A stretch of 32,000 bases of DNA. Origin: Rhodoferax sp. Its GTDB lineage: Bacteria > Pseudomonadota > Gammaproteobacteria > Burkholderiales > Burkholderiaceae_C. The position numbers were made by a program, and so were the translations under genes. This document shows, one piece after another, positions 10,555-26,668 of this stretch. Where the stretch lies: NCBI GenBank assembly GCA_008015235.1, contig SSFF01000015.1:58727-90726 (forward strand). The letters run 5' to 3'. Under the pieces are notes generated by a model. It made no database searches, was not told the DNA's origin, and saw nothing but the letters and a program-made list of their open reading frames with translations. Every line of letters begins with the position of its first letter. The first letter of the stretch is position 1.

Positions 10555-10600
10555 GGGGCGTTAGCTCAGTTGGTTAGAGCAGAGGACTCATAATCCTTTG
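10555..10600 (+). pseudogene. 5' 46 nt of the disrupted host tRNA(CAU) gene (attL side)
   Basis: GGGGCGT-TA-GCTC-AGTTGGTTA-GAGC-A-GAGGA-CTCATAA-TCCTT-TG, then it breaks into TTTTTTCCAAAAAAATTG. There is no T arm or acceptor 3' strand. Confidence 0.85.
10587..10600 (+). repeat. attL core, direct repeat CTCATAATCCTTTG
   Basis: Identical 14-mer at 20102-20115. It covers the anticodon loop plus the 3' anticodon stem. Confidence 0.8.
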
Positions 10601-10680
10601 TTTTTTCCAAAAAAATTGAGCTGATGCGTTGTAAGCGTTGCTACATATAGATAGTTTGCTATTGATAATGTAGCTTTCAT

Positions 10681-10701
10681 GCTTGCACACCGCTTGCACA
10701 C
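10681..10701 (+). repeat. Two tandem GCTTGCACAC motifs (candidate integrase arm-type sites, attL side)
   Basis: GCTTGCACAC at 10681-10690 and 10692-10701. A third copy is at 11085-11094. Degenerate copies lie near the right end. Confidence 0.45.
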
Positions 10702-10750
10702 TTTTTCCCAAAAAGTTGCAACGATTACCACAGTTAAAATTGCGAAGAGT

Positions 10751-11033
10751 GGGGCGTTAGCTCAGTTGGTTAGAGCAGAGGACTCATAAAATTTTGTGCC
10801 ATACGATTGGGAAACTGCGTATGGGATGGCGTCAAATTCGATGAAACCTAAGTGCAGCAATGCATAGGGCAATGTCGAGCCAAGCTTCAGCGCTTTTGTG
10901 CTGTTGAAGGTGTAGAGACTAGACGGCGCCCACCTAAAGCGAAAGCAATGGTGAAGGCATAGTCCAGCGAGTGGCGAAAGTCACACAAAGCAGAATCCTT
11001 TGGTCGTTGGTTCAAGTCCAACACGCCCTACCA
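10751..11033 (+). tRNA. Island-borne tRNA(CAU) interrupted by a group I intron. Exons are 10751-10787 and 10994-11033. It resembles tRNA-Ile2 (lysidine) more than elongator Met.
   Basis: The joined exons give a 77-nt cloverleaf: GGGGCGT TA GCTC AGTTGGTTA GAGC A GAGGA CTCATAA TCCTT TGGTC GTTGG TTCAAGT CCAAC ACGCCCT A CCA. G27-U43, the TGGTC variable loop and the TTCAAGT T loop resemble E. coli ileX as I remember it. Confidence 0.85.
10788..10993 (+). ncRNA. Group I intron, IC3 / Azoarcus pre-tRNA-Ile type, 206 nt, in the anticodon loop after CAU
   Basis: Blocks match my memory of the Azoarcus ribozyme: GTGCC, GGGATGGCGTCAAATTCG, GAAACCTAAG, GAGCCAAGCTTC, GAAGGTGTAGAGACTAGACGGCGCCCACCTAA and GAAGGCATAGTCCAGCGAGTGGCGAAAGTCACACAAAGCAG. 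It ends in G (omega-G 10993). P2-like stem CCATACG/CGTATGG. GTG (10796-10798) can pair with exon CAU. Confidence 0.85.
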
Positions 11034-11084
11034 CTTCTTACAGTGAACTGGCTTTTATAAAAGCGCCAGCACTAGTGTCATTTC

Positions 11085-11094
11085 GCTTGCACAC
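11085..11094 (+). repeat. Third GCTTGCACAC motif, between the island tRNA and int
   Basis: Exact 10-mer match to 10681-10690. Confidence 0.4.
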
Positions 11095-11132
11095 TCATTG
11101 TCCACTGCGACGCATGAAGTTACAGTGTGCGC

Positions 11133-12494
11133 ATGCCTCCAAAAGTTGAATCAACACACGTCTTAATGGACAAAACGCTCGTGCTTTACAGGCGCGAACG
11201 TAGTGGCATTTGGCAGTGTCGTTACAAGGTTGCAGGCGTATGGCAACGAGCTACAACAAAAGAACGCGACATTGAAAAAGCAAAGGATCAGGCCAAGCGC
11301 TTGATGATTGAAGCTGAGTTGCGTAAGCGTGAGAACTTGCCAGTCATCACACGCAGATTTAGAGATGTTGCCAAGCTAGCTGTGCAGCGTTTGGAAGACG
11401 AGCAGAAGAACGGCAAGGGCAAGGTCATCTACAAGGATTACATCCGTGTCATCAACGACGTATGCGTGCCGTTTTTAGGCAAACGCAACATTACGACGAT
11501 TGACTACGCTGTATTGGATGAGTTTGAAACATGGCGTGCAGAGCAGATGGGCAAGGCACCCACACGTAGCACGTTAATGACGCAGAACGCAGCTTTGAAC
11601 AGGGTGTTTGATGAAGCTGTGATACGTGGCTTTTTGATGCAGGCGAACAAGCCCGTGCTTAAGGCAACTGGCAAGAAAAGCGAACGACACGCAGCGTTTG
11701 ACGTGAAAGAAACAAAGGCGCTGCTTGGCAATTTTGATGAGTGGATTGAGCGAGCAAAAAACGACGAAAGTAAAGAGCTGCGAATGCTCTTGCGCGACTA
11801 TGTCCATGCGCTATTAGACACAGGTGCAAGGCCTGGCGACGAGCTGCTGAACTTGAAGTGGAAGCAGGTCAAAGTTGCAATAAAGCCCACTGTTGTGAAG
11901 GAAGGCATTGAAGGCAACGAAGACGCAGTAGATGCACACAACCTGAATTTGAGCTGTGAACTAACGGTTACAGGGAAAACAGGCACACGCACGATGCTTG
12001 GCATGGAGCGCACAGTGAGAGCGTTGCAGCGGATTGCAAAGCGCAATTACAAAGAAGTTGGCGAGCCGCTAGCGCCGTTGAAGCATGTAGCGATTGCTAC
12101 GAACAATGACTACGTGTTCCGCACCAAAGCAAAGGTCAAACCTACGAGTTTTTCAAAGCTGTTTGACACGTACTTAGAAGAGCACAACTTGCTGATTGAC
12201 CCAGCTACGGAGCGCAAGCGTGTCTTCTATAGCCTGCGGCACACATATGCAACGCAAATGCTTACCAACGACGGTGTGCCAATCCACACGCTGGCTAAGC
12301 AAATGGGAACGAGCGTTGTAATGATTGAAAAACACTACAGCCACTTAAAGGCAGTGCAAGCTATTGAGCAACTGCGCGGCGAAGAGACACGCAAGTTGCT
12401 GGAGGCAGGTGGCGTGATTGATGAAATCTATAAAGCAAAGCCAGCGAAGAAGAATGCAAACAAATTGGTTCGCAAAAGTGAGTCAAAGTGCTGA
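11133..12494 (+). CDS. int: Tyrosine-type site-specific integrase
   Basis: LLDTGARPGDEL (box I Arg), YSLRHTYATQML (HxxR) and GTSVVMIEKHYSH (catalytic Tyr). It sits next to the left att end. The start is uncertain (GTG 11127, ATG 11133 or ATG 11166). Confidence 0.9.
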   Translation: MPPKVESTHVLMDKTLVLYRRERSGIWQCRYKVAGVWQRATTKERDIEKAKDQAKRLMIEAELRKRENLPVITRRFRDVAKLAVQRLEDEQKNGKGKVIYKDYIRVINDVCVPFLGKRNITTIDYAVLDEFETWRAEQMGKAPTRSTLMTQNAALNRVFDEAVIRGFLMQANKPVLKATGKKSERHAAFDVKETKALLGNFDEWIERAKNDESKELRMLLRDYVHALLDTGARPGDELLNLKWKQVKVAIKPTVVKEGIEGNEDAVDAHNLNLSCELTVTGKTGTRTMLGMERTVRALQRIAKRNYKEVGEPLAPLKHVAIATNNDYVFRTKAKVKPTSFSKLFDTYLEEHNLLIDPATERKRVFYSLRHTYATQMLTNDGVPIHTLAKQMGTSVVMIEKHYSHLKAVQAIEQLRGEETRKLLEAGGVIDEIYKAKPAKKNANKLVRKSESKC

Positions 12495-12545
12495 ATGGAT
12501 TGGCTATAAACTATTAAGTAGATTAAATATAGAAATGAATAAATT

Positions 12546-13055
12546 ATGTCAGCAAGAAAATCATACACAAGCGTTACTGTTAAGTTGACAGATGGGGATT
12601 TGTGCGATGTTAAAAGATACGTAGATAATTTAATTCGCAGACATGAAAACAATGAAGAGCGAATTGATGAAATTATTGTTATTAATGGAATAGGCTATAA
12701 GCGTGAAGAGATTTATGGCGTAAAAATTTTGCTTGATGAAATTTTGGATAATGATGGCGATTTCATCGAAAGTGATGCGTTGAAGATTGTTGAGTATGTT
12801 GCTCCATCAGATTTCGAAAAGTTTATTGGCGAAGATTTGTACGTAAAGAAAAATGTGGCGGAGTTGAAAATCCGTTTTATTGAATTGCAGTTGATACTGG
12901 ATTTTTTAGATCAGGTTAGGCTGCTATCAGAAATTGAAGAATCTAAGTATTCGTTATGTGAGGTAAATGATTTTACCTTGCCAGATAATTTAGAGAATGG
13001 CACAGATGCTGAAAAGGAGTTGTGGGAAAGCTATAACAGAAGAAATAGAAAATGA
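12546..13055 (+). CDS. Hypothetical acidic protein, 169 aa, very AT-rich gene
   Basis: Long ORF in AT-rich DNA where stop codons are frequent by chance. I recognise no motif. Confidence 0.55.
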   Translation: MSARKSYTSVTVKLTDGDLCDVKRYVDNLIRRHENNEERIDEIIVINGIGYKREEIYGVKILLDEILDNDGDFIESDALKIVEYVAPSDFEKFIGEDLYVKKNVAELKIRFIELQLILDFLDQVRLLSEIEESKYSLCEVNDFTLPDNLENGTDAEKELWESYNRRNRK

Positions 13056-13097
13056 TATGGGCTATCATTGGTGGTCAATTATCAATATATTTCGAAC

Positions 13098-13115
13098 ATC
13101 AAAGATATCTTTGAT
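13098..13115. promoter_or_regulatory. Perfect 18-bp palindrome ATCAAAGATATCTTTGAT upstream of the H-NS gene (candidate operator)
   Basis: Perfect dyad 50 nt upstream of the GTG start at 13165. Confidence 0.35.
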
Positions 13116-13164
13116 AAGAAGTCAACTATCATGTTGGCTCCAATAACTATCGTTTGGAGTAAAC

Positions 13165-13557
13165 GTGGCACGAACAACGTTGGAAACACAACTGGCAAAG
13201 CTGCGTAAGCAGCGTGAGGCAATTGAGGCGAAAGAAAAAGCCTTACTTGCAAGAGCAAATGACAAGGTGATTGCTGAAATCGTCGCCCTTGCAAAGAAGC
13301 ACAACGTGACGATTGAAGAGCTAAGCGATGCGATGGATACTGCAAAGCGAAAGCGTTCTGCTAAAGGTACACGTCATGCAGCTAAAGCCCCCCGCAAAGC
13401 TGCTAAAACTGCTGACAAGCGCGCCAAAGTTGCTCCCAAGTACCGTAATCCTGCGAACGCTGCTGAGACGTGGACAGGGCGTGGCCGTACGCCGTTGTGG
13501 GTGCAGGCACTGAAGACTGCAGGACAGTTGGAAACTGCAGTGATTGCCACTGAATAG
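13165..13557 (+). CDS. H-NS family nucleoid-associated protein (xenogeneic-silencer type)
   Basis: Coiled-coil N-terminus, Lys/Ala-rich linker and a C-terminal YRNPANAAETWTGRGRTPLWV motif (H-NS DNA-binding TWxGRGRxPxW). GGAG lies 6 nt before the GTG. Confidence 0.85.
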   Translation: MARTTLETQLAKLRKQREAIEAKEKALLARANDKVIAEIVALAKKHNVTIEELSDAMDTAKRKRSAKGTRHAAKAPRKAAKTADKRAKVAPKYRNPANAAETWTGRGRTPLWVQALKTAGQLETAVIATE

Positions 13558-13572
13558 CTTTTTTTGCATAGC

Positions 13573-13606
13573 AAAAAAGCCCACTGTTTAACGAGTGGGC
13601 TTTTTT
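13573..13606. terminator. Bidirectional intrinsic terminator between the H-NS gene and the ATPase gene
   Basis: A6-AGCCCACT-GTTTAACG-AGTGGGCT-T6: an 8-bp stem flanked by an A-run and a T-run. Confidence 0.75.
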
Positions 13607-13609
13607 GTT

Positions 13610-13628
13610 GTGTCGTTTTAAACGACAG
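13610..13628 (+). repeat. Hairpin motif copy A: GTGTCGTTTTAAACGACAG
   Basis: 17/19 identical to copies at 15157 and 16353. It overlaps the ATPase stop codon (TTA at 13618-13620 on the plus strand). Confidence 0.65.
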
Positions 13629-14310
13629 CTTGTGAAATTGATGCTGTTCGCAATCGTTGGACTTTTATGATCACTTGCACAATTGCATTCACAACATCTC
13701 GTGCAGAACCATTGAACGGTTCAATGATTTTTACCAACGTCGCATCTTTCACGCTGTTTATCCCAGCATCTGCCAGCATCCTCCGCGTCAGTGGCAGCCA
13801 CTTGCTGGCTGGCGCAGCATTGAATGGGATGCAGTGACAGCGATTGCGCACACCCATTTCGACTTTGTCGAAATAGTTAGTAGTCATTATGAATATCGTC
13901 TGCGGGATATTCATAACTGACTTCAATGTCTGCATGGCCGCAACATTCAAGTTGTCCACTTCGTCCAAAACGAAATAATGGTGACTGGCAAGAGGAAGCA
14001 GAACGGCTTGCTGTTCTAGTTTCGCCATCAACAGCGCTCCGTTGTTGCCTGGCTGTATTCGCTCAAAACGTTCGTTGGCAACGCCATTGCTGCGCATGGC
14101 TTCCATAGCGTTTGGCAGAAGTTGTGCGAGTGCGCTTTTGCCAGTGCCAGGCACACCGTATAGCAAGATGCCATTTTTGCCAGACAACGGAAACGGATGT
14201 GCACCGCAGATGAGATCGTCAACAAGCACCCGCTTGTCATCGTCTGCAAACACTATATCTGCAATGGATTTGGGGGCGTAGTCATTGGGATTGAACATCG
14301 TGTTCGTCAT
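13618..14310 (-). CDS. AAA+ ATPase, clamp-loader (RFC small subunit / DNA pol III delta-prime) like
   Basis: Walker A LLYGVPGTGKSALA, Walker B YFVLDEVDNL, then AMQTLKSVMNIPQTIFIMTTN and GVRNRCHCIPF (SRC-like sensor). ATG at 14310 is preceded by AGGAAG. Confidence 0.8.
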   Translation of the reverse strand: MTNTMFNPNDYAPKSIADIVFADDDKRVLVDDLICGAHPFPLSGKNGILLYGVPGTGKSALAQLLPNAMEAMRSNGVANERFERIQPGNNGALLMAKLEQQAVLLPLASHHYFVLDEVDNLNVAAMQTLKSVMNIPQTIFIMTTNYFDKVEMGVRNRCHCIPFNAAPASKWLPLTRRMLADAGINSVKDATLVKIIEPFNGSARDVVNAIVQVIIKVQRLRTASISQAVV

Positions 14311-14369
14311 AGTCTTCCTTTCTTCTTTTTTGATTCGCTGAGCAGCAATCACTACTCAGCTTTGAGCAA

Positions 14370-15224
14370 TCAGGCTGCTAGTGCTTCAGCAACAGCTTGT
14401 TCTTGTGCAGTGATGGTTAAAGTCGCATCGTTTGCTGCGACCTGTTCTGCGACTTGTGTTTTTGTCTCAGGCTTTGACTTACTTTCGCTGTGGTAGCTGG
14501 CCAGTGCAGCGTTCAATGCAGTGTCGCTTTGCACGACAGCCTGAACAGCGACAGTTCCATCTGCCTGCCAAGTTCCAATCAGCACGACCTGCGCGCCAAT
14601 CTTTCCTGCGTCAAGTTGTGCGCCCAACTGCAAGCCCACAGCGACGCCCATGCTTTTTGTTGCAATGCTGGCTTTAGCCTGCGCGGCCTTCTGCGTGGAA
14701 GATAGCGCGGTGCTGTTGGGTTTTTTGCCCAAGCGAATTGCCTCCACCCCGCCAGCATTGGTGATAAACGTCGCAATTTGATCTGCTGCAACTCCATCTT
14801 GCAGTGCTTTCTGCAGCACCACGCTATAGGCGCTGACACGGCGACGATCTGTGCCGTCATTGCTGGTGCTGTCGCTGAACACGCACTTGACGATCTTGCT
14901 GATCGTGTGGGTTGATTTGAGGAACTTATAGCCCTTTTTGTTGACGTAGTTGTTTAGCGCATCACGCAGCTTCTTTGCTTCATCCCCATCTACCCCCATA
15001 TCCTTGTATAGCTGGTAGCACTTTTGCAGCAAGGCGTACAACATTTCATTGCTCGTACGGTAGACAGTGGTTTCCCACGCCTGACGATCAATTGCCAGTT
15101 GCTCAATGCGTTCAAACGTGTACGTGGGCGCAATAGTGCTGGTGGCATTCGCTGCAGTGTCGTTTTGCACGACAGGCGCAGTGTTAGTGGAAGAAGAGGA
15201 CACGAGAGCGGTAGCGTTTTGCAT
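14370..15224 (-). CDS. Hypothetical protein, 284 aa, upstream partner of the AAA+ ATPase
   Basis: ATG at 15224 is preceded by AAGGAG. The Ser/Thr/Ala-rich termini carry the repeated peptide VVQ(N/S)DTA. I recognise no family. Confidence 0.65.
   Translation of the reverse strand: MQNATALVSSSSTNTAPVVQNDTAANATSTIAPTYTFERIEQLAIDRQAWETTVYRTSNEMLYALLQKCYQLYKDMGVDGDEAKKLRDALNNYVNKKGYKFLKSTHTISKIVKCVFSDSTSNDGTDRRRVSAYSVVLQKALQDGVAADQIATFITNAGGVEAIRLGKKPNSTALSSTQKAAQAKASIATKSMGVAVGLQLGAQLDAGKIGAQVVLIGTWQADGTVAVQAVVQSDTALNAALASYHSESKSKPETKTQVAEQVAANDATLTITAQEQAVAEALAA
14521..14539 (+). repeat. Hairpin motif copy B: GTGTCGCTTTGCACGACAG
   Basis: Inside the 284-aa gene, encoding AVVQSDT on the minus strand. 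Confidence 0.7.
15157..15175 (+). repeat. Hairpin motif copy C: GTGTCGTTTTGCACGACAG
   Basis: Inside the 284-aa gene, encoding PVVQNDT on the minus strand. Confidence 0.7.
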
Positions 15225-15371
15225 TTGGAACTCCTTAGTAATGCAAGTTAATAAAGACAGCGTCAATGTGTTTGCTGCCATCGCCGCATCAGTTTGTTGC
15301 TGCGATGTATGTAATGTATTTTTCATATCAACAATGTGCGATAGTTGAAATAGACGGTTATATTTACAGCT

Positions 15372-16352
15372 ATGAATAGAGCGCAACGTCATTTCTTCAA
15401 AGGACTTCCAAGCTTCGTTGCGCCCAACGACGACATGGAGATAGCTGAAGCGAGGGAGAGCATCTATTACTGGTGGTGGGCCTTTGCGCGGCTCAGTCCA
15501 GTGCTCTGGTATGCAAACCAGACAGGCTTGAAACCCATTGATCCAGCTATCGCAAAAGTGACAGAAGCGCTTGGCGATTTGTGGCGTTACCCAGCCTTTG
15601 GCGTGTGGTGGAAAACACGCGGCAGCAAGGTGTTTGCTGAATCAAAGCGACCAGCAAAGGTGCAGCAACTGGATCTTTCACTACTGCACGAACATCCCTT
15701 TGACAAAGACAAGATGTACGTGGAAGTGCCGCTGAATATTCGCCAGCAGACCATCGTTAGCCAATTCAAAAAGCTATTGGCGCAGGAGCATGAAGGGCGA
15801 GCATTAAATCTTGCAGCTCACAGCACCGCGCACTTGGCACTGCATACAAAGCGCTACAGGCTCAGCACCATTGAAAAGGAGTACTGGGTACTGCTTTACC
15901 GTCTGCTGTACCCAAATATTGAGATTTGGCGTATTGGTGACCGTCTGCAAGTAGCACCACACCTCAAAGTGCGTGACACAGCAGGTGCAGAGGCACTAAA
16001 GCGCAAGCATGCGCTCAATGCTGTCACTGGCCGCTACTACTACAAGGCCAGATTCACGTTGCTTAACTTGGAGCGCGACAGCTTTCCCAACTTCAGCGAA
16101 ATTCACGTCAGTAGTAGGAAGCAGCCATTTGGTAGTGAACACCAAAAAGCATTTCGCGCGGCGACGGAAGATGGAATTGATGGCAAAACCTCTGCATGGG
16201 CACAGTGGTTGAAGGACACTTATTTGGAAGAACTGCACAGAGAGGTCAAGCGCCGTGTCCCGCACTTGGAATACAACATGCGCAGGCCAGAGAGCAATGC
16301 GCGGCACCGCATTCCTGCCTTTGTGGCTGGTACCAGTGACTTGCTGGAGTAA
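15372..16352 (+). CDS. Hypothetical Trp-rich protein, 326 aa
   Basis: Long ORF divergent from the 284-aa gene. N-terminus contains IYYWWWAFARLSPVLWY. I recognise no family. Confidence 0.6.
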   Translation: MNRAQRHFFKGLPSFVAPNDDMEIAEARESIYYWWWAFARLSPVLWYANQTGLKPIDPAIAKVTEALGDLWRYPAFGVWWKTRGSKVFAESKRPAKVQQLDLSLLHEHPFDKDKMYVEVPLNIRQQTIVSQFKKLLAQEHEGRALNLAAHSTAHLALHTKRYRLSTIEKEYWVLLYRLLYPNIEIWRIGDRLQVAPHLKVRDTAGAEALKRKHALNAVTGRYYYKARFTLLNLERDSFPNFSEIHVSSRKQPFGSEHQKAFRAATEDGIDGKTSAWAQWLKDTYLEELHREVKRRVPHLEYNMRRPESNARHRIPAFVAGTSDLLE

Positions 16353-16373
16353 GTGTCGTTTTGCACGACACTT
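16351..16373 (+). repeat. Hairpin motif copy D, extended to a 9-5-9 dyad: AAGTGTCGT-TTTGC-ACGACACTT
   Basis: Starts within the stop codon of the 326-aa gene and ends 7 nt before the recombinase stop. It is intergenic between convergent genes. Confidence 0.7.
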
Positions 16374-16379
16374 GAGTTG

Positions 16380-16946
16380 CTAGACCAATTCCACTGCGTT
16401 GCGCTTCATGTCGTCATTCACATCAATGTATTTCTGTGTCACTGCGATGCTGCGATGACCAGCGAGACTTGCCAGCACACGTACGCCTACGCCTTTGCTT
16501 GCAAGGTTCGTAATAAACGACCTGCGGCCACTGTGGCTACTTGCGCCATCAATGCCTGCCTTGCGATACAGCCAAAAGAAGTGCTGCGTAAGTACGTTTG
16601 CAGTGAATGCCTTTCTACCTGCTGTAACAAACAAAGGTTGTTCTAAGTTGGTCACGCCACGTGCGAACATGTAGCGTTGTAGTTCTGTGCGCAGTTTTTC
16701 GCCAATAAACACAGTGCGAGGATGACGGCCTTTGGTTTGCTCCGCTGCCAAGCGAACTTCGTGTTTGACAGTTCCATCTGCATTCATTACGTCGCCCACT
16801 TTCAAACTTGCAATCTCCCCAACGCGCATGCCTGACCAAAAGCTCGTCAGCAGCATCACGCGATTGCGCAGTGCAAAGCTTCGCGTTGCTATATATGCAA
16901 GTACCTTGTCAATTTCTACTTGTGTAAGTGTTTTTGCTTGTGCCAT
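16380..16946 (-). CDS. Single-domain tyrosine recombinase, 188 aa (FimB/FimE-sized, catalytic domain only)
   Basis: SGMRVGEI (Arg), SSHSGRRSF (HxxR) and AGHRSIAVTQKY (His...Tyr). AAGGAG lies before the ATG. There is no N-terminal arm-binding or SAM-like domain. Confidence 0.85.
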   Translation of the reverse strand: MAQAKTLTQVEIDKVLAYIATRSFALRNRVMLLTSFWSGMRVGEIASLKVGDVMNADGTVKHEVRLAAEQTKGRHPRTVFIGEKLRTELQRYMFARGVTNLEQPLFVTAGRKAFTANVLTQHFFWLYRKAGIDGASSHSGRRSFITNLASKGVGVRVLASLAGHRSIAVTQKYIDVNDDMKRNAVELV

Positions 16947-17306
16947 TTTGTTGCTCCTTTGTGCTTAATAAATACGTGTGTTATTAATGTATTTTCTTAA
17001 GCAGGCATGGGCAACCAAATAATGCAAAGGTCGCTTAATTCATTTCTTATATAGACACCAAAGGAAATAGCAATAAGCTTTGGTGTTTGAGTATTTTTGT
17101 TTCCAGCCCTTTGCAGCACTTCTTCCTGTTCCTGCTGTCTATGCGTGCGCTGTCCCGTTTGCGTTGCTTGTAGCTTGTTTTGTGCGTTCGCTGCGCTGTT
17201 TTCAAACTGTAAGTGCTGGCAGTAATTTTTAGGCAAAGCGAAGCTAATTAAAGCTTCATGCAGCTTTAAGAGTTTCAGCAAGAGGCAAACGTGGCCAGTA
17301 ATGCTG

Positions 17307-17822
17307 TCAAGCCACGTTCCACAGTACATTGTCAGTACTGTGTGCGTTCAGCTCTTTCGTCATGTATTCCATCCAGCCGCTGTCCATTACCTGTACATCG
17401 TGCTGTTCATCCATCCCATCAACCAACGCAATCGCGTTCTTCACCATCTCTTTAAACAGCATGGGCTTTTGTTCAAAGCCGCCTACTGCAAGGTGCAAGT
17501 GCAGACGTTTACCGTTACCAACACCTTCAACCGTTGCAAAGTAGCGCAGGCCTTTGCCGTCTCGCTTTGCTGCATGGCCGTAAGCCTGTTTGTTTAGCTT
17601 CTGTGTAAAGCGTTTGGCAATGCCTTCGCAGTCTTCGCGCTTTAGCTTGCGCATGTAGACGCCATTGTTGTTTTTGACTTTGTACGACTGCTTAAGCGTC
17701 AGCGTGACTGCGAATTGAAACTCCTGCATGTGACCATTTAGCCAGGTGCGTAATGCGTCTTTGCAAGCAGTACGTGCGTTGGCGTTGTAAGCAGTGATCT
17801 CCCGTATGCGCTGTAAGTCCAT
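17307..17822 (-). CDS. Small HUH-motif protein, candidate rolling-circle Rep / Inovirus Gp2 (YfjJ/YagK)-like
   Basis: FAVTLTL (Rep motif I-like), RLHLHLAVGG (His-hydrophobic-His) and WMEYMTKE (Tyr motif), in the canonical order. Start is either ATG 17822 or TTG 17843. Confidence 0.4.
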   Translation of the reverse strand: MDLQRIREITAYNANARTACKDALRTWLNGHMQEFQFAVTLTLKQSYKVKNNNGVYMRKLKREDCEGIAKRFTQKLNKQAYGHAAKRDGKGLRYFATVEGVGNGKRLHLHLAVGGFEQKPMLFKEMVKNAIALVDGMDEQHDVQVMDSGWMEYMTKELNAHSTDNVLWNVA

Positions 17823-17894
17823 GCATATATTTATTCCTGCCAAATAAAACCAAATATTTTTCTTGCCGTTATTTGGTTAGGTCATAAATACAGT

Positions 17895-18110
17895 ATGAGA
17901 TTTTTTGAATTTGCCCCTAAAACACCAACGCTACCCAAGCCAAAAACGCCAGATCAGCAGCGAGTTGCAGTCTTGCAAGGAAACAAGGATCGTGCTGCAG
18001 AAGCTTTGAAGAAGGAGCGGCAACGGCAGCAAGTGAGCAATGCGCAGAAGACGATTGCGAGGGTCAATGCGTCGCAGCCTATGCAAATGCCCAAACCTGC
18101 TACCAATTGA
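17895..18110 (+). CDS. Hypothetical small basic Pro/Lys/Gln-rich protein, 71 aa
   Basis: ORF divergent from the Rep-like gene, followed by a 9-bp stem hairpin GATGTGTTA-CTTTAT-TAACACATC (18109-18132). Confidence 0.4.
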   Translation: MRFFEFAPKTPTLPKPKTPDQQRVAVLQGNKDRAAEALKKERQRQQVSNAQKTIARVNASQPMQMPKPATN

Positions 18111-18290
18111 TGTGTTACTTTATTAACACATCTAAGTCTGCCAAAGCTTTTAGTGCTGTTTGTATGGCCGCATTTGGTTTTGCATGAATTGGATGCGGTA
18201 CCCAGTCATGCTGTACGGGTACAGGTTGCGAAAGAACGAAGGCTGAAAATACATTTGTCTGTGCTTTAACAAATATTGAAAGGAAAGCAC

Positions 18291-18731
18291 ATGGCAACAG
18301 CACTCGCGTCCCTCAAGTTCACAACTGCAAAGAAGTCCAGTCAACTGTCTCCTGTGCAGTCGCGCCGCAACAAGATCATTGCCAAATTGGAAGAGCAGAT
18401 TGCGTTGGCAACTGCGCAGGCAGAAGGGCGTGTGTATGCGCCAGCAAAATTTAAGACGGTGACAGATGCAAACGGCGAACGGCGCAGCGTTGAAACGGCG
18501 AAGCGCGTTAAACAGTGGTGGTTCGCAACAGTAGACGGCAAACTGGCGCTGACGGTGCGTTATGGCGCAAAGGTGCTTGAGTTGGCAAAGGGAAAGAACG
18601 CTGTGGACGTAGGCACTGCCGCGCAATTAGTGCCAGTGCTGACGCTGTTAAAGCAAGCAGCTGAAGCTGGCGAACTGGATGCTGCTATTGAGGCTGCTGG
18701 TGCGGCTTTGCGGAAAGGATTTGCAAAGTAA
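18291..18731 (+). CDS. Hypothetical protein, 146 aa
   Basis: ATG at 18291 is preceded by AAAGGAAAG. Composition is typical of the moderately AT-rich part of the island. Confidence 0.6.
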   Translation: MATALASLKFTTAKKSSQLSPVQSRRNKIIAKLEEQIALATAQAEGRVYAPAKFKTVTDANGERRSVETAKRVKQWWFATVDGKLALTVRYGAKVLELAKGKNAVDVGTAAQLVPVLTLLKQAAEAGELDAAIEAAGAALRKGFAK

Positions 18732-18864
18732 CTGGTATAGTATTTTGACGGATTTGATTTTAGAACTTCTGGCCGCTAAGTGTGGTTTTTTTCCTGCGTC
18801 GTTGGTGTAAGAGGTTTTTTGGACTATTTTTATTGACATTTACTAGATTGTTAGAGGGGGGTCT

Positions 18865-19884
18865 ATGCACTTTTGTTTGAAATTTATTATTTTGTCGCTA
18901 GTTTCATTTTCAGTAAACGCGCAACTTAATGGAGATGCTCGACGTAATTGGATGGGCCAGTATTTTGGAGCCTGCTATAAATCCCAAGTGGCAGATGCGT
19001 CAAATGTCGATGTGCCGCCAGTTATGATTGCTCAATATTGCAGTTGCGCTAGCGAGCAAACAGCGCAGGCATTGACTGATGGTTTGTTGGCAGAAATAGA
19101 TGCTGGGACAAAAAATCTTCCACAAAATATAAACACTGATGCGGCTAAGTTTTGCCTTACAAGTTTTAAAAAATATCCATCGAGTCCATTTGCTGAGAGG
19201 GTGATTAGTAGTGAGTCTGCAAAGAACATTAAGCTCTTTGATGGCACTACACAGCGATTTACGGCATATCGCCAGTTTGTATATGATAAAAATTGGAAGC
19301 TATTGCAAGACAAGGAACTGCCAAATGGCAAATATCTTTTTGATGTTAATTTTGCCCCAAATAGATCTCAAAATTTGGCCAGAGATGTAACCAGTGGTGT
19401 GGTTTATAGTCTTTTTGTTTCAGAGCAGGCGACAGAAGAATCGCGTAAAAAGGGTTTTGATTTTCTATTTTTTGTACCAGAAATTTCTGGTAATCTTGCA
19501 ATTAACTCAGTCAAAAATATTTTCGTTTCACAGTATTTTGATGTGCGAGATGGTAAATTTTATGAAACGCACTATGTTCGTTCTCAGGCGCTCATTTGTT
19601 CCGCATTAAACGAAGCGAAAATTCGTGCTCAAAAATCTATGGCCGCATCGATTTTTAAAGAGCTTCTTCTTGTTGCTATTAAAAGCTATGCTGGAGCAAG
19701 TTATAGCGGTGGAACTTTTACTGGAACAGCAAACGGCGGGACCTTTGTTGGTTCATTTCGTAAATATGACAGTACATGGCTTGGGGAGCACTATTCGCGG
19801 GGGTTGGATGCTGTATTTAACGGTACTGCTAGTTTGGGGGAGATAACTGATGAGCAGAATCGTTTGAAGTGTTCTGAAATTTAA
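18865..19884 (+). CDS. Hypothetical secreted protein, 339 aa, very AT-rich gene
   Basis: RBS AGAGGGGGG, signal peptide MHFCLKFIILSLVSFSVNAQ. I recognise no family. Confidence 0.6.
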   Translation: MHFCLKFIILSLVSFSVNAQLNGDARRNWMGQYFGACYKSQVADASNVDVPPVMIAQYCSCASEQTAQALTDGLLAEIDAGTKNLPQNINTDAAKFCLTSFKKYPSSPFAERVISSESAKNIKLFDGTTQRFTAYRQFVYDKNWKLLQDKELPNGKYLFDVNFAPNRSQNLARDVTSGVVYSLFVSEQATEESRKKGFDFLFFVPEISGNLAINSVKNIFVSQYFDVRDGKFYETHYVRSQALICSALNEAKIRAQKSMAASIFKELLLVAIKSYAGASYSGGTFTGTANGGTFVGSFRKYDSTWLGEHYSRGLDAVFNGTASLGEITDEQNRLKCSEI

Positions 19885-20023
19885 TTCGCTTGAATTTAAT
19901 TTTTTGGAACCCTTTTGTGCGCACTTGATCGATGAGAGGGGGTGTGCAAATACTGCGAATAATTGATGTGTTGCGCATTGCCATTGGCGTGCAAGTCTTA
20001 TAAAAGCAGTAGTTATTTCAGAT

Positions 20024-20045
20024 GCTTACACACTTTGCTGCACAC
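20024..20045 (+). repeat. Degenerate arm-type motifs GCTTACACAC and GCTGCACAC (attR side)
   Basis: Each has 1 mismatch to the GCTTGCACAC consensus. An inverted GTGTGCAA lies at 19942-19949 and GCGTGCAAG at 19987-19995. Confidence 0.4.
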
Positions 20046-20101
20046 TGAAAAAAACCACGCTGTAAACCGCATAAACACTAGGTTTTGTGAAATAAATTTT
20101 T

Positions 20102-20115
20102 CTCATAATCCTTTG
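20102..20115 (+). repeat. attR core, direct repeat CTCATAATCCTTTG
   Basis: Identical to 10587-10600. Confidence 0.8.
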
Positions 20116-20146
20116 GTCGCGGGTTCAAGTCCCTCACGCCCTACCA
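20102..20146 (+). pseudogene. 3' part of the disrupted host tRNA(CAU): anticodon loop to CCA
   Basis: CTCATAA-TCCTT-TGGTC-GCGGG-TTCAAGT-CCCTC-ACGCCCT-A-CCA, preceded by island AT-rich DNA. 10555-10600 plus 20116-20146 equals 77 nt. Confidence 0.85.
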
Positions 20147-25057: not shown

Positions 25058-26668
25058 ATGCCTGCCCTCCGTTCCAAGATCAACCCGCGAAGCGACGCCT
25101 TTGCCGCCAACGCCCAGCGCATGGGTGCGCTGCTGGCCGAAGTGCAGCGACTGGAAAACCTGGTCATCGCCGAGTCCGAATCCAAGCGCGACAAGTTCGA
25201 GAAGCGCAAGCAGTTGCTGCCGCGTGAGCGCGTGGCCCGCCTGCTGGACCGCGGCACCCCGTTCATCGAAATCAGCCGCTTGGCTGGCCTGAACATGCAC
25301 GACGACGACGGCAAGAAGTCCGTCATGGGCGGAGGCTCCATCGTTGGCATCGGCGTGGTGTCGGGCAAGCGCTGCCTCATTTCGGTGAACGACAGTGCCG
25401 TCAAGGGCGGCACCGTGGCACCCATGGGGCTGAAGAAGGGCCTGCGTGGCCAGCAGATCGCGCTGGAGAACAAGCTGCCCATCATCAGCCTGGTGGAAAG
25501 CGGTGGCGCCAACCTGATGTACCAGGCTGAAATCTTTGTCGATGGCGGGCGCAGCTTCGCCAACCAGGCGCGCATGTCGGCGGCCGGTATTCCGCAGATA
25601 TCGGTGGTGCATGGCTCCAGCACGGCCGGTGGTGCCTATCTGCCGGGCTTGTCGGACTATGTGATCCTGGTGCGTGGCCGCTCCAGCATCTACCTGGCTG
25701 GCCCGCCCTTGGTGAAGGCTGCGATTGGCGAGGATGCCACCGATGAAGAGCTGGGCGGCGCCGAAACCCATGCCCAAGTCACAGGGCTGGGCGAGTACCT
25801 GACCGAAGACGATGCCCATGCGATTGCCATGGCGCGCGAGGTGATGGACAAGCTGAACTGGGACGTTGCCAGCACCCCGGCAGGCTATGCCGAGCCGCTG
25901 TTCGATGAGCAGGAGCTGATGGGCATTGTCCCGGCCGACGAGCGCGAACCCTACGACGTGCGCGAAGTCATTGCCCGCTTGGTGGATGGTTCGGACTTTC
26001 TGGAGTTCAAGGCCTCCTACGCGGCAGAGACCGTGTGCGGCCATGCCCGCATTCAGGGGCAGCTGGTGGGTATTCTCGGCAACAACGGTCCTATCCAGCC
26101 CAACGGCTCGACCAAGGCGGCGCAGTTCATTCAGCTGTGTGACCAGAGCGGCACGCCGCTGGTATTCCTGCAGAACACCACGGGCTACATGGTGGGCTCG
26201 GCCGCGGAGCGCGGTGGTGCCATCAAGCATGGCAGCAAGATGATCCAGGCTGTGGCCAATGCCCGCGTGCCCAAGTTCACCATCGTGCTTGGGGGTTCCT
26301 TCGGCGCCGGCAACTACGGCATGTGCGGCCGTGGGTTCGATCCCCGCTTCATCTTTGCCTGGCCCTCGGCGCGTACCGCGGTCATGGGTGGCGCCCAGGC
26401 GGCCAAGGTCATGGACATCGTCAACCGGGCCAAGCTGGAGCGCATGGGCGCCGAGGTGAACGAGGAAGCGCTGGCCGCCATGTCCGACGGCCTGCGCCAA
26501 CGTCTGGACAAGGAAAGTGCGGCCCTGTTTGGCACCGCACGCCTGTGGGACGACGGAATCATCGACCCGCGCGATACGCGCCGCATTCTGGGCCTGTGCC
26601 TGAGCCTGGCCCGCGAGGCCGACGCCCGCACCCTGCGCCCCAACACTTTTGGCGTTGCCCGCCTGTAA
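25058..26668 (+). CDS. Acyl-CoA carboxylase carboxyltransferase (beta) subunit, methylcrotonyl-/geranyl-CoA carboxylase type
   Basis: SKINPRSDAFAANAQRM, LPRERVARLLD, VNDSAVKGGT, and a length typical of LiuB/AtuC. AAGGA lies before the ATG at 25058. Confidence 0.9.
   Translation: MPALRSKINPRSDAFAANAQRMGALLAEVQRLENLVIAESESKRDKFEKRKQLLPRERVARLLDRGTPFIEISRLAGLNMHDDDGKKSVMGGGSIVGIGVVSGKRCLISVNDSAVKGGTVAPMGLKKGLRGQQIALENKLPIISLVESGGANLMYQAEIFVDGGRSFANQARMSAAGIPQISVVHGSSTAGGAYLPGLSDYVILVRGRSSIYLAGPPLVKAAIGEDATDEELGGAETHAQVTGLGEYLTEDDAHAIAMAREVMDKLNWDVASTPAGYAEPLFDEQELMGIVPADEREPYDVREVIARLVDGSDFLEFKASYAAETVCGHARIQGQLVGILGNNGPIQPNGSTKAAQFIQLCDQSGTPLVFLQNTTGYMVGSAAERGGAIKHGSKMIQAVANARVPKFTIVLGGSFGAGNYGMCGRGFDPRFIFAWPSARTAVMGGAQAAKVMDIVNRAKLERMGAEVNEEALAAMSDGLRQRLDKESAALFGTARLWDDGIIDPRDTRRILGLCLSLAREADARTLRPNTFGVARL

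Follow-up and report, generated by a model that had tools for sequence, protein, structure and literature searches.

Why should a mobile island that has split a host tRNA gene carry a complete copy of that same gene, and why should a group I intron interrupt this copy exactly within the island's own att core? The question is raised by a stretch of 32,000 nt of Rhodoferax sp. DNA (hereafter the window), in which a low-GC mobile island of about 9.5 kb (10601-20101) lies inside the host tRNA-Ile2(CAU) gene and splits it at the anticodon loop. The features of this locus, together with those of related contigs, are listed in Table 1.

The two ends of the island are marked by the 14-mer CTCATAATCCTTTG, which is contiguous at exactly two places in the 32 kb (10587-10600 and 20102-20115), compared to 0.08 copies expected by chance; two copies were found in none of 100 shuffles. 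The GC content between the host halves is 46.4%, against 61.9% and 63.4% in the flanks, so that tRNA-Ile2-derived direct repeats at both island ends and a deviant base composition are both present. As the halves share the 14-mer and the GC content drops between them, the island was inserted into the anticodon loop of the host tRNA gene. The first 37 nt of the host 5' half (from 10555) are identical to exon 1 of the island tRNA, and hrcA is found upstream of tRNA-Ile2(CAU) in related hosts, in synteny with the host 5' half of this locus; by similarity, HrcA of the window's host is at 87% to a Burkholderiales MAG and at 80% to Limnohabitans. When the two host halves were joined, ARAGORN recognized a valid 77-nt tRNA(CAU) in the reconstructed sequence, differing from the spliced island tRNA at four positions only, all of them in the T-stem (two pairs). 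The host tRNA is thus replaced, both host halves and a full internal tRNA having been located, as the preliminary description of this DNA had proposed. Beyond the 14-mer, the island shows no relation to a tRNA, and the canonical restoration of the 3' part by attP was not found.

Two further observations concern the host halves. Positions 10555-10631 of the window, consisting of the host 5' half and the island TTTTTTCCAAAAAAA hairpin followed by ATGCGTTG, score 28.3 bits as a tRNA with a cut-off of 29, and this chimera may be the relic of a former attP-borne 3' half. A C50-U64 mismatch in the host 3' half was considered as a sign of decay and rejected, as the identical T arm adjoins an integrase of 88% identity in locus L081.

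Table 1. Coordinates of the features of the island and of related contigs; positions refer to the window unless preceded by a locus identifier.
Feature	Position	Strand	Remarks
Displaced host tRNA-Ile2(CAU) 5' half, 46 nt	10555-10600	+	3' end is the attL core 10587-10600; loop CTCATAA 10587-10593
Island left arm, P' side of attP	10601-10750	+	AT-rich, 36.7% GC
Tandem GCTTGCACAC repeats, putative arm-type integrase sites	10681-10690, 10692-10701	+	Same pair in spacers of related loci
Exon 1, island tRNA-Ile2(CAU)	10751-10787	+	Ends with anticodon CAT
Group I (IC3, Azoarcus-type) intron, 206 nt	10788-10993	+	tRNA positions 36/37; starts AAAATTTTGTGCC, ends G
Exon 2, island tRNA	10994-11033	+	Starts AATCCTTTG; T arm GTTGG/CCAAC, CCA end
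Third GCTTGCACAC repeat, between island tRNA and int	11085-11094	+	Exact-repeat search
Tyrosine integrase, 453 aa	11133-12494	+	PF00589, E=8.6e-9; alternative GTG start 11127
ORF, 169 aa	within 12546-19884		Island cargo region
H-NS-like protein	13165-13557		Island cargo
AAA ATPase	13618-14352	-	Island cargo
Two unknown ORFs	within 12546-19884		Island cargo region
Small tyrosine recombinase, 188 aa	16380-16946	-	Island cargo
Rep ORF2/G2P-like protein	17307-17843	-	Island cargo
DUF6641 protein	18276-18731		Island cargo
Secreted-looking ORF, 339 aa	within 12546-19884		Island cargo region
GCTTACACAC repeat in right (P) arm of island	20024-20033	+	Exact-repeat search
attR core (20102-20115) and displaced host tRNA-Ile2 3' half, 45 nt	20102-20146	+	T arm GCGGG/CCCTC, CCA end
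tRNA-Lys(CUU) with intron	L153 629-910; L165 263-548; L183 7748-8032		
92-99 bp intron/exon 2 repeats	L034 5659-5750 and 8521-8612; L071 4867-4965 and 7729-7827		
Decayed copies of intron/exon 2 repeat	L042 15110 and 17371; L061 7897; L075 1749		

Within these limits the island has the anatomy of an integrative element. Residues R233, R369, H370, H401 and Y402 of its integrase are conserved, with the R, H and Y invariant in 22 homologues, and 2708 homologues were detected at E<=1e-10. Exact GCTTRCACAC repeats were found only at 10681, 10692, 11085 and 20024, with the island tRNA between them, and are probably arm-type sites because the same positions recur in relatives. The P arm of the window resembles the attR arms of L001, L002, L023 and L047. 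Regarding the cargo, the small recombinase and Rep are also found in the relative L077 (4073-5514), hinting at a replication or mobilisation module, and another relative, with an integrase of 80% identity (contig of P0007), bears an MmeI-type restriction-modification gene.

The complete tRNA(CAU) carried by the island starts about 150 nt inside it, upstream of the tyrosine integrase gene. Neither ARAGORN in default mode nor Rfam at gathering thresholds found this tRNA or its intron in the window, and intron-aware ARAGORN and the E-value mode of Rfam were needed for their detection. The former recognized a tRNA(cat) spanning 10751-11033, in which 206 nt of intron follow the anticodon, and a cloverleaf with anticodon CAU was present once the intron was removed. 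The best E. coli match of the island tRNA was a tRNA-Ile (87% identity) to which PGAP assigns the anticodon CAT, followed by tRNA-Lys genes at 80.5%, and no tRNA-Met was among the top matches listed; the Ile2 type considered earlier is therefore supported. ARAGORN detected no further tRNA in the 32-kb window, barring an intron-aware call of a tRNA-Arg(acg) with a 45-nt intron at 26237-26356, which lies under long ORFs of both strands and is probably a false positive. A scan for consensus promoters and terminators around the island tRNA found none, and its transcription by read-through from the host tRNA promoter may be conjectured.

The intron splits the island core into CTCAT (10783-10787) and AATCCTTTG (10994-11002), separated by 206 nt, at the very place given in the preliminary description, and so the att site of the island copy is physically divided. 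With the intron inside the crossover region and the 14-mer contiguous at the two island ends only, the replacement tRNA lacks a contiguous attB, as had also been claimed. The intron begins with AA and the loop CTCATAA is still contiguous at the junction between exon 1 and the intron, meaning that only the right arm TCCTTTG is displaced, by 206 nt. Compared to the Rfam model Intron_gpI (RF00028), the intron scored 48.4 bits (E=3.8e-11, over the full length of the model, positions 1-253), two bits under the curated gathering score of 50, which explains the empty default scan.

To describe its fold, the window intron was aligned with 17 homologues from other genomes (18 sequences in total). The exon CAT pairs with the intron guide GTG (C-G, A-U, U.G) in 18 of 18, with covariation of the P1 extension, the last intron base is G in all 18, and the anticodon stem is preserved across the intron. 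Compensatory changes were found in 31 of the 76 pairs of the consensus fold, including P1, P2, P3, P4, P5, P6 and P9, which argues for a constrained ribozyme and not for a decaying insert. On these grounds, the island pre-tRNA would be expected to undergo self-splicing in vivo. We take the window intron to be closely homologous to the IC3 intron of the Azoarcus tRNA-Ile(CAU), as known from its published sequence, and presumably to have the same P3-P9 core and 3' end as the published Azoarcus ribozyme. Both lie in a tRNA-Ile(CAU), are inserted after the anticodon, measure about 205 nt and pair a GUG guide to CAU; as for its setting, the window copy is found in a mobile island, next to an integrase gene and behind a displaced host half.

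The position of the crossover was deduced from relatives. Those adjoining tRNA-Lys are all canonical: one end has the tRNA intact, and the other has a repeat of 45 nt that starts at tRNA position 31/32. In replacement-type relatives the identity between host half and island can stop directly after CTCATAA. The start of the repeat and the end of the identity place strand exchange within the 7-nt anticodon loop, and consequently both intron positions found in this family (36/37 and 33/34) fall inside the overlap. The functional core is then this 7-nt loop and not, as previously supposed, the whole 14-mer; the extra TCCTTTG of the latter is probably the right core-binding arm kept in attP. In two relatives, L018 and L019, the spacer, about 133 nt upstream of the tRNA carried by the island, contains a second CTCATAATC 20 nt past the first core.

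These data lead to an explanation that we consider reasonably probable as a whole, namely that of a loop-targeting island whose replacement tRNA would be made inert as attB by a self-splicing intron. According to it, 10601-20101 would be an integrative island belonging to a large family of integrases from freshwater Betaproteobacteria, and its tyrosine integrase would recombine inside the loop CTCATAA of tRNA-Ile2(CAU). Its attP would hold the short core only, with no tRNA 3' half, in such a way that insertion would split the host gene and render it non-functional, a loss that would be offset by the complete tRNA-Ile2 gene between the arm-type sites and int. The island copy has the anticodon stem-loop of the target, with the intron at 36/37 putting the right arm (TCCTT) 206 bp away from the loop and the left arm. 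Tyrosine recombinases need two inverted core sites flanking an overlap of 6-8 bp; as the arms are 206 bp apart, the island copy should be unusable as attB, and we infer that it is inert to the integrase. Recombination in cis between the island's own attP and this copy, at the cost of the spacer and exon 1, would be prevented, as would integration into it by incoming relatives, and splicing would restore a normal tRNA. Carriage of the whole gene would also provide independence from the host acceptor stem, as a putative further benefit. In this respect, host and island do not have the same acceptor 5' strand in 16 of 33 loci; mispairing would thus be frequent in a chimeric tRNA, a possible reason for carrying the whole gene.

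The comparative analysis was made on 75 loci chosen by integrase homology only, with one genome per species, mostly from freshwater Betaproteobacteria (Polynucleobacter, Limnohabitans, Polaromonas, Leptothrix, Rugamonas). The design of the window recurs in dozens of freshwater bacterial genomes. In its closest relative with upstream DNA (L083, integrase 85% identical) the same design and a near-identical intron were found, and the order of host half, spacer with paired repeats, intron-containing tRNA, single repeat and int is kept there and down to about 55% integrase identity with similar spacing. The element lies between the two host halves in six loci (the window, L001, L002, L023, L047 and L015).

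A core, either as a displaced 5' half or as an arm-core junction from a tandem array, lies upstream of a complete tRNA(CAU) in 37 loci, which were scored for the state of the internal copy. An Azoarcus-type intron at 36/37 was present in 24 of them, and a distinct group I intron of about 250 nt at 33/34 in four others (L038, L046, L057, L063); the splice site of the latter is based on the restored loop CTCATAA and a weak Rfam match (33 bits), with no P1 definable by eye. Eight copies are intronless but have an altered anticodon stem (GTCGA/TCGAT, GGCGA/TCGCT or GAGAA/TTCTT vs. GAGGA/TCCTT in the host), and in the remaining locus, L015, the internal tRNA is identical to that of the host and has no intron. 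Intron-split copies thus amount to 28/37, at two positions and with at least two intron lineages; the 36/37 intron of L011 is divergent and represents a third kind. Since loci with either intron type have homologous spacers, the intron was exchanged on one scaffold. Adding the stem variants, 36 of 37 internal copies are intron-split or stem-changed, although this represents far fewer independent events, as many of the loci are related and one Polynucleobacter clade dominates.

Relatives that restore the 3' half only, including all those targeting tRNA-Lys, have no intron, and whenever a contiguous host-type stem-loop adjoins int (L007, L009, L067, L077, L087) it belongs to a canonical chimeric attL tRNA without an upstream core. 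Thus, the expectation that related islands would always bear an intron failed, as some restore the 3' half, some carry intronless stem variants and L015 is unchanged. The underlying idea of masking fared better, as it gained strong circumstantial support from the split or stem-changed copies, but the unmasked L015 means that it is not obligatory. Just upstream of the internal tRNA of L015 (9150-9910, 18665), two tRNA-like repeats of about 95 nt with the loop CTTCGAG were observed.

Nor would exclusion of further elements be absolute, because tandem arrays are still formed (L032, L064). Junctions of the type right arm-CTCATAA-left arm, which resemble attP, were observed in chromosomal contigs at L032 (around 8700), L064 (around 7620) and L003 (597), and indicate tandem arrays or circular forms; no terminal overlap of the contig was found for L003.

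The same design was found for a second tRNA. Three high-GC metagenome contigs (L153, L165, L183), unrelated to the former ones, show a displaced 5' half, a spacer of about 190 nt with CGTTTAGTGTG repeats and an intron-containing tRNA-Lys(CUU), in this order, and no integrase of the window family was found nearby. In the phage and plasmid collections, no similar intron-containing tRNA was found.

That inertness to the integrase would be the reason why the intron is kept, with masking as a selected function, is well supported by the near-perfect association, the independent introns at two positions, the stem variants as an alternative solution and the tRNA-Lys parallel. The coincidence of intron and crossover is by itself no evidence of selection: to our knowledge, group I introns of bacterial tRNA genes are always located in the anticodon loop, and as this integrase family chooses the same loop, their co-location is to be expected.

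This is the ground for the main alternative, in which the intron is a passenger: a whole tRNA-Ile2 gene would have been captured with the Azoarcus-type intron of its donor, or the intron would have spread by gene conversion, being neutral or selfish; that it lies in the att core would follow from two preferences for the anticodon loop that have nothing to do with each other. Arguments for it come from 120 metagenome contigs retrieved by scanning for the intron core. Upstream sequence was sufficient for 51 intron-bearing tRNA(CAU) genes, of which 25 have a displaced 5' half, 7 an arm-core junction and 19 neither, so that native-looking genes without the core are common, and an integrase of the window family lies downstream in 6/22 of those with an upstream core vs. 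0/12 of those without it, a difference that is not significant in this sample (p=0.07). Such genes without a nearby core or integrase, including one at the native hrcA-linked position in L052 (7885-8174), are possible intron donors. The unmasked L015 is also in line with a dispensable intron, and the intronless stem-variant copies resemble the natural tRNA-Ile2 of other taxa, as simple capture would have it; we take the GGCGA/TCGCT stem to be that of E. coli ileX. Against the passenger, the intron is near-universal in internal copies with a host-type stem and absent from the canonical and tRNA-Lys-targeting relatives, at least two intron lineages occupy two positions on homologous scaffolds, and the tRNA-Lys case is independent. 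Moreover, it is otherwise unusual for a bacterial tRNA gene to contain a group I intron (PMC4090602). All in all, a mere passenger seems unlikely to us.

A much less probable alternative is that the window holds a composite scar, left when a replacement-type island entered the chimeric tRNA of a canonical island and recombination between exon 2 and the resident 3' half deleted most of it, the intron-containing tRNA being a leftover. Close canonical relatives do exist (L077 and L087, with integrases of 77% and 74% identity), tandem arrays with arm-core-arm junctions are frequent, and in L080 (1-60, Logan SRR6439735) an integrase and trailer 100% identical to those of the window follow an intronless tRNA. 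However, the same order with similar spacing is kept in L083 and down to about 55% integrase identity, and L080 may be a spliced cDNA, a canonical island variant or an artefact in which de Bruijn assembly joined the island to a native tRNA, both DNA and cDNA libraries having been deposited by the project behind it (PMC6212505). Finally, the intron-containing tRNA might simply be the native gene of the host, with the 5' half before it having arisen by partial duplication on the spot, independently of the island, as the 37-nt identity to exon 1 could suggest. This can practically be dismissed, given that the corresponding 3' half, which bears the same 14-mer, is found 9.5 kb downstream where the low-GC block ends, and that the intron tRNA and its spacer are located within this block, between conserved arm repeats.

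Returning to masking of a replacement tRNA as the preferred explanation, its consequences for the host were also considered. The addiction-like outcome put forward previously is not indicated: neither host half is damaged, the two together give a valid tRNA, and precise excision should therefore rebuild the gene; host dependence may arise only after decay of the island. In the metagenome contigs L122, L130, L201 and L207, intron-containing tRNA(CAU) genes were observed at the native hrcA-linked position or before ordinary genes, with no integrase; as with L052, this suggests islands that decayed while their tRNA was retained, and decayed modules kept beside ordinary genes hint at dependence after degradation. 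In other contigs, direct repeats of 92-99 bp placed 2.86 kb apart comprise the intron's final ~50 nt together with exon 2, and it seems that another element integrates inside the intron-containing tRNA, with the 3' part of the intron in its attP. Tentatively, and with some doubt on our side, a decaying island, or one whose displaced 5' half recombined with exon 1, could leave the host with an intron-containing gene at the native locus, which would explain the sporadic tRNA introns of proteobacteria, possibly that of the Azoarcus ribozyme included, some elements having since evolved to integrate inside the intron.

Regarding known systems, the island resembles canonical tRNA-targeting elements in having an integrase gene next to the tRNA, a crossover in the 7-nt loop and arm-type repeats, and members of the same family are canonical at tRNA-Lys and at tRNA-Ile2. 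Reportedly, Williams in 2002 sorted tRNA-targeting islands and prophages into sublocation classes, one of which is crossover in the anticodon loop. However, the attP of canonical elements brings along the 3' half of the tRNA, from which a chimeric gene is reconstituted, whereas the island of the window has a 14-bp core and a separate whole gene.

Contrary to what had been stated at first, precedents exist for parts of this arrangement. Temperate Rhizobium phages like vTRX32-1 (Autographiviridae) integrate into tRNA-Leu through a 12-bp att core, interrupting the host gene, and carry a complete tRNA-Leu without the att motif, which according to the authors replaces the function and prevents 'super-integration' (PMC8631192). 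These phages and the window share a short core in a tRNA, an interrupted gene and a full tRNA of the same identity without a contiguous core. The att motif was removed by sequence divergence in the phages, as in the eight stem-variant loci, and by an intron in the window, and the window element is a small island without virion genes, unlike the phages. On the archaeal side, Randau and Soll (2008), as cited in PMC4090602, proposed that tRNA introns and split genes protect against integrating viruses. In the form in which that review cites it, this idea has in common with the window that an intron in the anticodon region breaks attB while splicing restores the RNA, and differs in that it refers to host genes of archaea with protein-spliced introns, while here the intron is of the self-splicing type, bacterial and located in a gene belonging to the mobile element itself. 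Islands go unmentioned in reviews of bacterial group I introns (PMC3984707), and our full-text literature searches brought up no account of a bacterial island whose replacement tRNA is masked by an intron. Therefore, replacement with an att-free copy was already known from the Rhizobium phages, and it is the intron version for which no description was found.

As default tRNA finders and Rfam thresholds miss genes of this kind, genomes that carry them would seem to be devoid of tRNA-Ile2 and the boundaries of their islands would be misdrawn. The locus shows a way for an island to occupy a presumably essential gene where a chimeric tRNA cannot be rebuilt. If the proposed explanation is true, it would provide a concrete role for the group I introns of bacterial tRNA genes, usually deemed neutral or selfish, as the intron would uncouple the gene as DNA, a target of recombination, from the gene as RNA, the tRNA. 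The patchy spread of tRNA introns would then have in islands of this family a vehicle as well as a ratchet.
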